The notes under the pieces were generated by a model, which saw only the letters and a list, made by a program, of their open reading frames with translations, was not told the DNA's origin and did no database searches. Positions 25,931 through 50,841 of a stretch of 64,000 bases of DNA are shown piece by piece. Where the stretch lies: IMG/VR virus record IMGVR_UViG_3300043783_000034, positions 1-64,000 of that record; one strand, given 5' to 3'. Source of the DNA: a virus. How positions within the stretch are numbered: position 1 is the first letter of the stretch; each line of letters begins with the position of its first letter. Position numbers and translations under genes: made by a program.

Positions 25931-27238
25931 ATGCTCACGAAGCTCCGGGTTGGCATTGCCGCCGTCGCCATCCTCGCCGCAGTGCTGCCCGCGAAGTCGC
26001 AGACCACCGTCCTCGACTTGGTCCCCATTCCGCTCCCGGGCACGAGCAACACCACGCTCAATTCGGAAATGCTCGTGCAGAGCCTCGCGGTTACGGGCGG
26101 CACGCTTTTCATCGTTACCATTCGGCAGCCGGGCGCCGGCGGCGCAATCCTTGGTTCAACCGCATCCTTCGCCGCGTCCGCAAATGCCGCGATCACGCCC
26201 GCGTCGATCACCGGCAGCGTGGCGCCTTTTCCAATTGCTGGCCTCGCAGCTGCGCAGGGAGGCGCCGTCACCGTCACGGGCGGCGCCTCTTCGACGTCAG
26301 CCAATGCTGGCGGGGCCGTTGATCTGACCGGCGGCGCGCCGGGGGCGACCGGCGTTGGCGGCGCCATCGTCATCGCCGGCGCAGCCGGCGGAACGACATC
26401 GGGCGCGGGTGGCGCTGCGAGCGTCACGGGCGGCGCTGGCACGGCAGGCAACTCGTCGGGCGGCATTGCTTCGCTGGTCGGCGGCGCCGGCCAGGGCACC
26501 GCGAACGGCGCCCAGGCGCAGGTCACGGGCGGCGCTTCGGGCGCTGGCCCGACCGGAGCCGGTGGCGCGGTCGTCATCGCCGGCGGCGCGGCGGCTTCGA
26601 CGAACGGCGCGGGCGGCGCGGCGTCGCTGACGGGCGGTGCGGGCGTCGGCACCGGCAACGGCGGCAACGCGACGGTGGCGGGCGGCGCGGCAGGCGCGAC
26701 CGGTACCGGCGGCACTGTTGCGATCACTGCGGGCTCGCCCACGGCTGGCAACGGATCGAGCGTCACCGTGACCGCATCGGCGGGCGCCGGCGGCACCAAC
26801 GGCGGCGGCAGCATCAACCTCGTGCCAGGCGCGGCGGTCTCGACCGGCGCTCCGGGCACCGTGCAGGTCAACGGCAATGCCGGCCTGATCTGCCACAACG
26901 GGACCATTGCCACCGGCTCGGCGTCGACCACGATCTTCATCGCGACGCGGGCGATGCTAATCGAGCAAATCAGCGCAATCTGGTCGGCGGCGGCGGGCGG
27001 CACCAGCACAGCGGGCGTCTATCACGACACGGGCACCAACGCGCCGGGTGGTGGCACCGACATGCTCTCGGCCGACTTCAACCTCAACACCACCGCGAAC
27101 ACCACGAACACCGGCTCGCTGTCGGCGACCGTGGCGACGCTGATGCTGGCTGCTGGCGATCGCATTTCGGTCAAGATGAACAATGCCATTCAGTCGACCA
27201 CTGGCTTAAACTTCACTTTCTGCGCGGCGCCGCAATAA
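25931..27238 (+). CDS. Signal-peptide-bearing glycine-rich fibre/adhesin
   Basis: MLTKLR-hydrophobic-AKS|Q; about 12 GGxVx(I/L)TGG repeats. Confidence 0.75.
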   Translation: MLTKLRVGIAAVAILAAVLPAKSQTTVLDLVPIPLPGTSNTTLNSEMLVQSLAVTGGTLFIVTIRQPGAGGAILGSTASFAASANAAITPASITGSVAPFPIAGLAAAQGGAVTVTGGASSTSANAGGAVDLTGGAPGATGVGGAIVIAGAAGGTTSGAGGAASVTGGAGTAGNSSGGIASLVGGAGQGTANGAQAQVTGGASGAGPTGAGGAVVIAGGAAASTNGAGGAASLTGGAGVGTGNGGNATVAGGAAGATGTGGTVAITAGSPTAGNGSSVTVTASAGAGGTNGGGSINLVPGAAVSTGAPGTVQVNGNAGLICHNGTIATGSASTTIFIATRAMLIEQISAIWSAAAGGTSTAGVYHDTGTNAPGGGTDMLSADFNLNTTANTTNTGSLSATVATLMLAAGDRISVKMNNAIQSTTGLNFTFCAAPQ

Positions 27239-27302
27239 GGAGGCGCTTAAACCCAATTCCCACGACAGCCTCGCGGGATCTCACCAGGGGGAACCTGACA
27301 CC

Positions 27303-47845: not shown

Positions 47846-50841
47846 TGCGCCGCCTCGCGCTCGCCGCGCTCGCGCTCGTGCTGTGGTGCTCGGGCGCGCT
47901 GGCGCAATCGTCCTGCACCATCGGTGGCATCAACATTTTCGCGCCCGGGGTCATTCCAACGCCGGGTCAGTGGGCGCAATGCTTAGAGTCCAAGCAGGAC
48001 TTTCTCGGATCATCCGCGCTTGCCGTAACCAACGTCTTTGGCACCGCGCCGATCACGGTCAATGTCGCCGGGACGATTGTCACAATCGGGATCTCAAACG
48101 GCGTGAGCGTCGTCAATCCCGGCACTGGTACGCTTGAGACGGTGTTTCCGATTCAGACGGTAGCGGGCGCAAGCAAGACCTTCGCGACCGCCGACCTGTT
48201 CAAGGAAACCCGCCGGTCGAATTCCGGGTCGGCGATGACCGATACCTTTCCGGCTGCGACTGTCACCGGCATAGTGTCCGGCACGCGGATCACCGTCACG
48301 AACGTGGATGCGACTGCGACCGATACAATCACGGCCGGTTCTGGCACTACGATCTCCGGCAATGCCACCTATGCGGTTGGGCCCGGGCGCGCGGTGCAGT
48401 TCGCGTATGATCTGGCTAATACGGAGTGGCGCCCAACACTCAACACCGGCGATGCGCTGCTCGGGCCGAACAATCTCAATGACGTTTCTAATCGCGCAAC
48501 GGCGCTCGCCAACTTGATGCCGACGCCAACGCGCGCCGGCGATATCGTGTATTGGAATGGCTCGAACTGGGTCACGCTCGCTGGCAATAATTCCGGTACC
48601 CAGTGCCTCGTCGAGAACTCTTCTGGGTCCCCGACTTGGACGAACTGCGGGCCAGCCGGTTCATCTGGGCAAGTGCAGACCAACTCTGGCAGTGGGTCTT
48701 TTGCAGCGCTTACCAACACGCAGCTTACAGCGCTCATCAATGTTGCCACCGCGAGCCTGTCTGGCGCCCTTCCGGCATGGCCAAACACCACTACAACGTA
48801 TTTTCGTGGCGACGGTACGTATCAAACACTGAACCCAACTGCGGTCGGCGCGCTCGCAATTTCCAACAATCTCAGCGATGTCGCCAGCAAGACGACCGCT
48901 CAGAACAACCTGTTTCCATCGCCAACCCGGGCCGGCGATATCGTGTATTGGAATGGCTCGAACTGGGTCACGCTCGCTGGCAATAATTCCGGTACCCAGT
49001 GCCTCGTCGAGAACTCTTCTGGGTCCCCGACTTGGACGAACTGCGGTTGGGCGATCAATGCGGTGCAAACCTATGGGGCGGTCGGCGACGACAACACCGA
49101 CAACACGGCGGCGATGACATCCGCCATCAATCAGGTCAATTCCGTCGGTGGATTTGTAGCGTGGCCGGAAGGCTCATATCGTTACAACTGCGCGAGCACT
49201 CCAGCCATCACGGCGACGGGTGGCGGATTTATCGGCGTCGGATCAGGCTCGGCCTATACGTCGCAGAACACTGGACCATCGGGCGCGGCTCACGGCACGA
49301 TTTTCCGCTGCACGAGCGCCACCGCCAATTCGCTGACGACGGGCGGATCAATCGGTTTTGCGATTCGCGATATTGGCTTTTGGCCGGTACCGTTTAAAAC
49401 CGGCGGCTTTGAAATACAGGATGGCGGAACCAACACGATAATAGATAACGTTAGCTGCTCGTACGTCAACGGATGTATTTTCTTTGGCGGCGGGTCAAAT
49501 GGAAGCTCGGCCCGTCACACGCGATGTTTCGGTGTTTTCGGATCGACCGGATGCGTGATGACGCAAGGGTCTTCATCCGCAATCGCCAACTGGGCGCAAG
49601 GCATTCTGGTCGACGACATTATCGCATATAATCCTTGGCCTGTTTCTGAACCCGGCCAAACGGCATCTATCAATGCAAGCTGGACGGCAGGCGCGACCTA
49701 CGCGACAGGCGCGATCGTCATAAACGGCAATTATGTCTTTCAGGCGATCACCGGCGGTGTTGCGGCTGCAAGCGGAGGAGGTCCGGTTCCTCCATCATAT
49801 AGTTTTGCCGGCGCCCCAACGACGACCGGAATTACGGACAATACCGTCGTCTGGCATATGACAGAGGCGGCGCAGGCCGGGGCCGTGAATGTAGATTCGA
49901 ACTCCGTTAACATCACGATCAGCAATGCGCAATTGCTGACGTTTTTTTGGGGCCTCATAGTTGAAAATACGCTATCGTCAAGTCAATACCCTCAGGATGT
50001 AACCATTTCACTGTACTTGGTAGACAGCACGTTAGGCGACAGCATTTTCGCTCCCGCCGGCTCGCGGCTTAGCATACTTGACGGTCGCATGCACGAATCC
50101 GCTATTGGGCGTGGATTCACCGGTGGAGCGGGCTTCACTGGCGGACTGCTCATCCGCGGCAATCACGTTTGGAAAGCGGCGCTTAATGGCATCCAGTTGC
50201 CGCCGATTACAAATTGTATTTGCACCGTGGTCGACAACGTGATTGCGGGTAATGGCGCCAAAACGTCAAATACCTATGCCGGTATTCTTATCGGGTCATC
50301 GACAACCAAAGTCACGGCGCGTGGAAATACGATAGGCCCGGACGCGGCGGGCGGCGGTACGCAGTCGTATGGCATGACGATAGATGCCGGCAGCGACAGC
50401 CTTGAGATTGATCACAACAACCTGTGCGGCAACGGCACGGGTGGGATGTTGAACGGTGCGACGACAGTGAACAGCGTCATCGTCGACAATCTTTGTTATA
50501 ACCCGGTTGGTGTCACGGCAGCCGCAAATGTCGGCACATCGCCAGCTACGATCACGAACGGCGCGACGCCGGCGACGCATTACCTCAATCAATCAGCCAC
50601 CAATACTGCAACCGTCGCCAAAGGCGGCCGCGCCGTCGCGACGCTCGCGGGCTCGTCAACCTATTACCCAATCCAGCTCGGCCCGAACGAGAGCTACACG
50701 GTGACGTGGAGCACGACGCAGCCGACTTACACCGCTGACGTGCATCTGCGCGACGACGCGTTTGCCGCGCGAATGCTCGATGTGGCGAACGATAACGAGG
50801 AAATTTTCTACAAGGCCGCGCGGCGGTCAAATGGACGGTGA
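47842..50841 (+). CDS. Tailspike (right-handed beta-helix) with signal peptide
   Basis: MMRR-hydrophobic-ALA|Q; YGAVGD..TDNTAAM..AI; I.GN repeats. Confidence 0.82.
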   Translation: MMRRLALAALALVLWCSGALAQSSCTIGGINIFAPGVIPTPGQWAQCLESKQDFLGSSALAVTNVFGTAPITVNVAGTIVTIGISNGVSVVNPGTGTLETVFPIQTVAGASKTFATADLFKETRRSNSGSAMTDTFPAATVTGIVSGTRITVTNVDATATDTITAGSGTTISGNATYAVGPGRAVQFAYDLANTEWRPTLNTGDALLGPNNLNDVSNRATALANLMPTPTRAGDIVYWNGSNWVTLAGNNSGTQCLVENSSGSPTWTNCGPAGSSGQVQTNSGSGSFAALTNTQLTALINVATASLSGALPAWPNTTTTYFRGDGTYQTLNPTAVGALAISNNLSDVASKTTAQNNLFPSPTRAGDIVYWNGSNWVTLAGNNSGTQCLVENSSGSPTWTNCGWAINAVQTYGAVGDDNTDNTAAMTSAINQVNSVGGFVAWPEGSYRYNCASTPAITATGGGFIGVGSGSAYTSQNTGPSGAAHGTIFRCTSATANSLTTGGSIGFAIRDIGFWPVPFKTGGFEIQDGGTNTIIDNVSCSYVNGCIFFGGGSNGSSARHTRCFGVFGSTGCVMTQGSSSAIANWAQGILVDDIIAYNPWPVSEPGQTASINASWTAGATYATGAIVINGNYVFQAITGGVAAASGGGPVPPSYSFAGAPTTTGITDNTVVWHMTEAAQAGAVNVDSNSVNITISNAQLLTFFWGLIVENTLSSSQYPQDVTISLYLVDSTLGDSIFAPAGSRLSILDGRMHESAIGRGFTGGAGFTGGLLIRGNHVWKAALNGIQLPPITNCICTVVDNVIAGNGAKTSNTYAGILIGSSTTKVTARGNTIGPDAAGGGTQSYGMTIDAGSDSLEIDHNNLCGNGTGGMLNGATTVNSVIVDNLCYNPVGVTAAANVGTSPATITNGATPATHYLNQSATNTATVAKGGRAVATLAGSSTYYPIQLGPNESYTVTWSTTQPTYTADVHLRDDAFAARMLDVANDNEEIFYKAARRSNGR
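48535..49046 (+). repeat. 116-bp perfect direct repeat (48535-48650 = 48931-49046)
   Basis: Direct base-by-base comparison. Confidence 0.95.

Follow-up and report, generated by a model that had tools for sequence, protein, structure and literature searches.

Textbook accounts place the assembly of tailed phages in the reducing cytoplasm of their hosts. Virion proteins with cleavable leaders that follow the host Sec route are known from filamentous phages (coat proteins pIII and pVIII), and tailed phages export non-virion proteins such as spanins and signal-anchor-release (SAR) endolysins. The antiholin RI of T4 is another exported non-virion protein of a tailed phage (PMC8385771), and the gIII leader is named in PMC9402515. 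Filamentous phages, however, assemble by extrusion through the envelope, and the known exported proteins of tailed phages are lysis or exclusion factors, unlike the tail parts considered here. We analysed a 64,000-nucleotide (nt) stretch of viral DNA (positions 1 to 64,000 of IMG/VR record IMGVR_UViG_3300043783_000034; hereafter the window), in which a tail fibre gene, a spike-like gene and two smaller genes of a contractile-tail morphogenesis module begin with predicted Sec leaders. The full record comprises 73,921 bp and is rated 100% complete by CheckV; the G+C content of the window is about 61%. The closest described counterparts of the fibre are those of PB1-, phiE131- and PE067-like myoviruses and their prophage relatives (PHROG 12796; Pa193, 9b45; phiAO1, BCZ75789), which occupy the same slot behind the baseplate genes W, J and I. 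Fibres of the cultured PB1/phiE131/PE067 type share a homologous N-terminal domain with the fibre of the window (40-48% identity) and have a variable C-terminus, as here. All cultured members that we found are leaderless, start at the residue where cleavage is predicted in the window and carry Gly and Val/Thr in place of a Cys pair. From comparative evidence on leaders and cysteines, we consider it likely that the leader-bearing proteins are exported and fold oxidatively.

Leader-bearing genes and the tail fibre slot

A preliminary description of this DNA had pointed to four genes that start with Sec-type leaders and to capsid, sheath, tube and baseplate genes that have none. All are present as it described, and a Shine-Dalgarno (SD)-like motif of the GGAG/GAGG type lies about 7-10 nt upstream of each of the four leader ATGs. 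The leaders occupy the very starts of their genes, which are listed here together with the baseplate wedge genes in front of the fibre:

46337-47845, + strand: tail fibre precursor of 502 amino acids (aa); leader 46337-46396 (20 aa; MNRLISVFAALAMLATPALA, then I), N-terminal anchor domain 46397-46846, variable C-terminal part
47842-50841, + strand: precursor of a spike-like second receptor-binding protein, 999 aa; leader 47842-47904 (MMRRLALAALALVLWCSGALA, then Q), predicted beta-helix at about 49039-50541
34648-35220, + strand: precursor of a small, putative neck-region protein, 190 aa; leader 34648-34707 (MRKLYLAAATWIALTAMAWA, then Q), GYCQ...SC loop, Thr/Gly-rich module, C-terminal domain
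25931-27238, + strand: precursor of a Gly/Ala-rich protein, 435 aa; leader 25931-25999 (MLTKLRVGIAAVAILAAVLPAKS, then Q), conserved C-terminal Cys pair
43553-46266, + strand: baseplate wedge genes W (43553-43930), J (43934-45598) and I (45595-46266), matching PHROGs 120, 6 and 587; leaderless

The start of the spike gene overlaps the fibre stop codon in an ATGA, with a GAGGAG motif upstream. We scored leaders with a rule-based scheme of our own, which looks for basic residues in the n-region, for an h-region that is hydrophobic and free of charges, and for small side chains at -3 and -1. The four leaders scored 4.3-4.8, and no start score was obtained for the capsid, portal, sheath, tube, hub and wedge genes; beyond the module, high scores fell only to 51109, 51623 and a membrane-like open reading frame (ORF) at 10226, with 27303 scoring weakly. 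Among structural ORFs upstream of the fibre in related loci the scheme flagged 23 of 795, about 14 of which are fibre or downstream genes in loci with short flanks, leaving about nine and a true rate of about 1%. Given this background, four leaders in one module lie far above chance. The leaders match the cleavable Sec type, for which an h-region of about 7-15 residues was taken as characteristic: their h-regions are 12-17 residues long, the n-region in front is basic, and positions -3 and -1 hold small residues. Their sequences drift freely across deep divergence while the leaders themselves persist. Lipoprotein and twin-arginine translocation (Tat) leaders were ruled out: none of the four ends in a lipobox (L-x-[GA]-C), and the RR in the spike leader is not kept in relatives. 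Collectively, these comparisons support leaders that are real, conserved and apparently of the Sec/signal peptidase I type, with the fibre leader directly preceding a predicted virion-anchor domain.

The position of the fibre leader, immediately before a typical baseplate-anchoring domain according to the preliminary description, is borne out by the gene slot behind W-J-I and by the match to tail fibre family PHROG 12796 (E 1.5e-22), in which profile position 3 aligns at fibre residue 23. In a tblastn search of cultured phages, every alignment in the 163 records found starts at fibre residues 21-32, and the annotated coding sequence of Acetobacter phage phiAO1 begins exactly at aligned residue 21; the leader is therefore best described as an addition in front of a standard fibre. 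In a collection of 5.8 billion proteins, about 115 of the 120 best fibre homologues carry an MKR-hydrophobic-AxA leader, and the three that are clearly leaderless have QNG instead of QNC. The anchor domain occurs once in the 73.9-kb genome, and invariant fibre columns are confined to residues 27-152, the C-terminus being variable. In structure, a model of the N-domain comes closest to the N-terminal parts of tailspikes from Acinetobacter phages and to the Pa193 baseplate/fibre complex 9b45 (template modelling (TM) score 0.50), and the profile of the domain matches tailspike 24qi (E 1e-4). Together with the gene slot and the conservation pattern, these matches support a putative particle-binding role for the N-domain.

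The slot itself is stable. Our IMG/VR scan yielded 490 contigs with a fibre relative, 80 viral loci of which were kept for reading, and in 80/80 the fibre is the single fibre gene behind baseplate W-J-I; several of the relative contigs are complete genomes of 72-74 kb with direct terminal repeats. A scan of one genome per prokaryote species gave 70 prophage copies of the fibre, preceded by W-J-I in 64, by I alone in two and by no matching neighbour in four. Their hosts are mostly Rhizobium, Mesorhizobium, Bradyrhizobium, Methylobacterium, Acetobacteraceae, Achromobacter and Paraburkholderia. Nearly all of these prophage fibres are leaderless, the exceptions being a contig of a Terracidiphilus metagenome-assembled genome and Bradyrhizobium oropedii Pear76.

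After the predicted cleavage, between AxA and (M/L/I/E)xxSxxP, the mature fibre would begin within a residue of the point at which leaderless fibres begin. At this ancestral start position, leaderless loci have ATG or GTG in 90/92 cases and an SD-like motif upstream in 70/92. In leader-bearing loci ATG is found in 9/31 (lost in 22/31) and an SD-like motif in 0/31, and the window has ATC. A second, cytoplasmic fibre isoform made from an internal start was ruled out on these three counts.

Cysteine pairs and their association with leaders

The fibre has ten cysteines (C57, C78, C132, C156, C264, C270, C286, C322, C447 and C450), 34648 has YCQ...ASC, and the spike has TQC...TNC twice. All the Cys motifs that the preliminary description listed for these three proteins are in the sequence, and its statement that leaderless relatives carry other residues there proved sound: they have Gly, Val or Thr at the Cys positions. 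We compared leader and Cys state in 240 unique fibre N-domains, in which four apparent exceptions were misses of the scorer. The C57/C78 pair occurs in 125 unique sequences, all 125 of which have a leader, and in 0/103 leaderless sequences, so the pairs are far from equally common in leaderless homologues. C57 and C78 appear and vanish together, as do C132 and C156, always both or neither. The same tendency is seen over whole chains: the Cys count is even in 93% of mature leader-bearing fibres (n=138; 1.51 Cys per 100 aa) and in 59% of leaderless ones (n=39; 0.44 Cys per 100 aa). In related loci, the region downstream of the fibre encodes 39 distinct leader-bearing proteins of 400 aa or more, 36 of which (92%) have an even Cys count, against 51% of the leaderless ones.

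In a tree of the 240 rows, leader plus Cys pair is essentially the property of one clade of 129 rows (support 95). The tree gives few independent events: independent contrasts of leader against Cys pair gave four and two supported pairs, too few for a sign test. The raw 125-to-0 association is no measure of probability. A leaderless trio nested within the leader-plus-Cys clade has lost Cys57; in P0077, which lies inside a leaderless clade, leader and Cys pair occur together; and the second Cys pair arises in another leader-bearing lineage. These separate events are few and all point the same way. Lineages with a leader and no pair suggest that export may have preceded the Cys pair. The excess of cysteines and the even counts, tied as they are to leaders, point to folding in what would be an oxidising compartment.

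The spike-like protein, the smaller proteins and their surroundings

The spike has 17 cysteines, 16 of them in the mature chain. Residues 400-900 were modelled with AlphaFold2 (AF2) as a right-handed beta-helix (predicted local distance difference test (pLDDT) 89.3, predicted TM score (pTM) 0.90), and Foldseek matched the model to alginate epimerases and lyases and to the tailspikes of Det7, CBA120, Sf6, Fri1 and Depo32 (E 1e-10 to 1e-6, TM about 0.45-0.52). A sequence search of the Protein Data Bank gave no match between the spike and any solved structure, and Pfam, PHROGs and NCBIfam gave nothing beyond weak sub-threshold matches, among them Pfam CBM_5_12. The name tailspike used in the preliminary description thus holds at the level of the predicted fold, which is shared with tailspikes and alginate epimerases alike. 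The protein is modular, and its N-terminal part is made of tail-fibre-type modules. We collected 150 representatives that are at most 50% identical to each other and share at least one module with it. Leaders are found on at least 84 of these 150 relatives, 88% of which have an even Cys count, compared with 55% of the rest. Many relatives carry SSPN..YGQVPT..QWNSYF..KQD directly behind the leader, and the leaderless P0295 starts at the site of the SSPN motif and has 0 Cys.

Leader-bearing, Cys-paired large proteins downstream of the fibre were also seen in six prophages (L083, L087, L089, L097, L101 and L119) carried by Rhizobium freirei PRF 81, Bradyrhizobium oropedii Pear76, Methylobacterium frigidaeris, Labrys sp. 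La1, Bradyrhizobium sp. LjRoot220 and Achromobacter marplatensis B2. The leader-bearing second receptor-binding protein of PRF 81 has 709 aa.

The 34648 family is large, with 60-77% identity, and is found only in uncultured sequences; a protein search of 50,697 cultured phage records gave no match. Of 120 homologues, 107 were scored as leader-bearing and most others were judged so by eye (about 115/120 in all). The architecture consists of the leader, PLGYCQLS...SC and a Thr/Gly-rich module common to J, sheath and terminator, and the leaderless homologue P0201 has GYGQ for GYCQ. A homologue is present in 3/5 leader-type relatives and in 0/5 relatives with a leaderless fibre. In one leaderless-fibre relative (L169; G001:C1:36500-42500, reverse strand), a non-homologous, leader-bearing ORF of 198 aa (649-1245) sits in the 34648 slot, right after the head protein homologue. 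Another leader-bearing ORF, of 164 aa (MKRTAAVVLALSLLLAVYA; L007, 6295-6790), lies between baseplate W and J in a complete relative of 72.6 kb.

All six full-length homologues of 25931 have leaders. Their mature N-termini (Q-[ST]-T-V) place the cleavage of 25931 between AKS and Q, in agreement with the earlier assignment. Pfam, PHROGs and NCBIfam gave nothing beyond weak sub-threshold matches for 25931, 51109 and 51623. The C-terminal domain of 25931 resembles small viral proteins and, weakly, the Phage_cement_2 family, which makes its earlier designation as a decoration protein a lead.

The rest of the contractile-tail module, which PHROG and Pfam scans of the window show to be complete and on the + strand, and the genes that follow it are:

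12578, + strand: terminase
14407, + strand: portal
16592, + strand: head morphogenesis protein
17931-19382, + strand: Nudix-prohead protease fusion in one ORF (Nudix hydrolase at residues ~60-190, prohead protease at ~288-466)
21147: minor head protein, carrying a Thr/Gly-rich module
22088, + strand: major head protein
27303-27932, + strand: 209-aa protein with a weaker leader-like start (MKRAFLLRNAAVAAMVMA, then N; score 4.07) and an SD-like motif upstream
34256, + strand: head protein
35298, + strand: tail terminator
36124, + strand: DUF3383 sheath
38165, + strand: tube
38611, + strand: chaperone
39248, + strand: tape measure
40679, + strand: Dit-like protein
41724, + strand: hub
42716, + strand: apex protein
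51109-51498, + strand: small coiled-coil protein with a leader predicted by the scorer
51623-51961, + strand: small protein with four Cys and a leader predicted by the scorer
52055-52846, + strand: glycoside hydrolase family 25 (GH25) endolysin (Pfam Glyco_hydro_25 and endolysin PHROGs)

A megablast search of 18 kb of the module against the 50,697 phage records gave no match. The Thr/Gly-rich module (about 65 aa; PHROGs 21413 and 38233) recurs in 34648, the tail terminator, J, the minor head protein 21147 and the sheath (window positions 34800-35000, 35490-35690, 45100-45300 and others) and is a source of tblastn cross-matches. Amid the structural genes, the + strand of 28007-31201 encodes two small Cys-rich proteins (eight Cys each, with CxxC motifs) and, as Pfam confirms, an FkbM methyltransferase and a TPR-GT9 glycosyltransferase.

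In the lysis region, the endolysin has neither a leader nor a SAR domain nor a hydrophobic N-terminus, and a hole-forming holin is expected because it has no export signal; the holin candidates are a 65-aa ORF at 50762 and a 115-aa ORF at 55140. The helper role that the preliminary description proposed for 51109 and 51623 found no evidence here: a homologue of 51623 adjoins the endolysin gene in L015, a position more in keeping with a lysis accessory, and lies elsewhere in L081. The two proteins are unlike a classical two-component spanin, as both a lipobox and a membrane-anchored partner are absent. Beyond the lysis genes, a 315-aa ORF (54107-55054, + strand) has N-terminal hydrophobic segments, a weak OMP_b-brl match and a beta-barrel-like end (...NYKF), and may be a phage-encoded outer-membrane protein.

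Proposed export, rival explanations and known systems

We propose that the four genes would give rise to precursors with cleavable Sec-type signal peptides, and that host Sec would carry the unfolded chains across the inner membrane. Signal peptidase I would cut after the AxA-type motif, by which the fibre would regain the N-terminus of its leaderless orthologues, and the oxidising periplasm would be the place where the chains fold, form trimers and gain their disulfide bonds. The head, tail and baseplate would be built in the cytoplasm. A holin would open the inner membrane for the leaderless endolysin, and the fibre, probably joined by the spike, would attach to the baseplate during or just after lysis. 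That an exported fibre would still dock on the baseplate follows from its conserved anchor domain, its single copy and its regenerated N-terminus; attachment is placed at the breach of the inner membrane because this would be the only opportunity for an exported fibre to meet the baseplate. We infer that the proteins are exported, cleaved and disulfide-bonded and, most of all, when and where they attach. The preliminary description had likewise proposed export, disulfide folding and late attachment; the first part gains from conserved leaders and from Cys pairs that go with them, and we infer the attachment of the exported pool to the particle. To our judgement the whole chain, from export through to attachment to the particle at lysis, stands a little short of an even chance. 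More tentatively, a widespread uncultured contractile-tailed lineage may build its particle in two compartments that meet where the holin breaches the inner membrane: fibre, spike and small surface proteins would be periplasmic and disulfide-bonded, and final assembly, at or after lysis, would depend on Sec and Dsb.

Several observations weigh against this proposal. The leader calls come from a crude, rule-based scorer, and the search of cultured phages turned up none with leader-bearing forms. Twelve leader-bearing fibres are without the C57/C78 pair, and leader state changes nine times on the tree and Cys state five times, which amounts to few independent events. The model of the fibre N-domain, built from a 50-row alignment, is of moderate confidence (pLDDT 69). 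Attachment after the burst must, by our own rough reckoning, compete with fast dilution. Leader-bearing spikes occur with leaderless fibres in L010, L024, L029, L042, L051 and L083; spike export could be independent of fibre export, with a possible use off the particle.

This last point leads to the first rival explanation, in which the proteins are exported and act off the particle, binding or cutting the receptor polysaccharide within the periplasm or on the surface of an infected or lysogenic cell. The effect would be to block superinfection, to keep progeny from sticking to debris or to aid release, and the particle would use other adhesins. Here belongs the exported decoy or exclusion factor that the preliminary description had offered as an alternative, which stays in play for the spike above all, as it has a leader even where the fibre of the relative is leaderless. 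Leader-bearing spikes accompany leaderless fibres and are found in prophages of cultured bacteria, the predicted beta-helix of the spike resembles periplasmic alginate epimerases and lyases as well as tailspikes, the virion place of 34648 and 25931 is only putative, and the module encodes other large leaderless proteins, such as 31407-33902. The fibre, however, argues against it: the anchor domain is its best-conserved part, which is sensible only if it still docks on the baseplate, it is a single-copy gene in a fixed fibre slot, the predicted cleavage recreates the ancestral N-terminus, and a leaderless isoform is impossible. We regard action off the particle as fairly unlikely.

A second, unlikely explanation is that, in spite of the leaders, most of the protein is not exported. 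The leaders might hold the nascent fibre at the inner membrane, on its cytoplasmic side, while the baseplate is assembled, or act as a folding or assembly pro-peptide that a phage protease removes, or export might be leaky, with the particle built from a cytoplasmic pool. The assembly of tailed phages is cytoplasmic in every studied case. A prohead protease is encoded in the window (17931-19382), and signal peptides on the capsid proteins of Porphyromonas phages have been read as probably cut by the prohead protease (PMC10367356). Yet the short h-regions, the basic n-region and the small residues around the cleavage site (-3 and -1) are those of a cleavable Sec peptide and not of a membrane anchor, leaders that drift freely are unlike a specific pro-peptide, and the Cys excess and the 93% of even counts are seen only with leaders, which again points to an oxidising compartment. 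The third explanation is an annotation artefact: translation would truly begin further downstream, and what looks like a leader would be a hydrophobic stretch arising by chance from untranslated sequence or a wrong frame. This is highly improbable, and we found nothing in its favour, although gene callers in the source data do sometimes choose starts further upstream (P0007, P0121, P0149). SD-like motifs precede every leader ATG, no in-frame start lies close to the cleavage site of the fibre (residue 21 is ATC), and leaders are conserved in hundreds of homologues against a scorer background of about 1%.

The lineage offers a clean natural comparison, with fibres of either kind in the same slot and a cleavage site on the old start. 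If parts for host recognition prove to be exported routinely, Sec, signal peptidase and Dsb of the host would be needed for infectivity, as new host factors and possible routes of resistance, and morphogenesis would come to include the timing of lysis and the sequence in which the membranes are breached. The receptor-binding proteins would need periplasmic or otherwise oxidising expression to fold, which bears on the engineering of depolymerases and fibres. These predictions are testable in prophages of cultured strains, namely Bradyrhizobium oropedii Pear76 for the fibre leader, and Rhizobium freirei PRF 81 and others for the second receptor-binding protein.

Among known systems, the tailspike depolymerases Det7 gp208, CBA120 TSP2 and TSP3, Sf6, Fri1 gp49 and Depo32 share with the spike the beta-helix core, the place beside the fibre gene and tail-fibre-type N-terminal modules. 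To our knowledge, the solved tailspikes fold in the cytoplasm; compared with them, the spike of the window has a Sec-type leader, its 16 mature cysteines and no sequence similarity. Adhesive fibres with signal peptides have been described in Bdellovibrio bacteriovorus, as mosaic adhesive trimer (MAT) fibres (Caulton et al. 2024, PMC10769870). These differ in that they are encoded by chromosomal genes of a predatory bacterium, without baseplate or capsid genes, and are displayed on its own surface, and we found no sequence link between them and the proteins of the window. In phages of Porphyromonas gingivalis, Sec-type leaders were predicted on capsid proteins, spanins and genes of unknown function, so that core phage functions are among those affected (Matrishin et al. 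2023, PMC10367356). That study does not mention fibres or spikes and, unlike the present one, makes no comparison with leaderless orthologues or of Cys content. Our literature search, with most subscription journals outside its coverage, returned no paper on Sec leaders on the fibres or tailspikes of tailed phages. The window contributes a contractile-tailed lineage in which orthologous leaderless and leader-bearing fibres occupy one gene slot, together with the statistics of Cys parity and pairing and the exclusion of an internal start.

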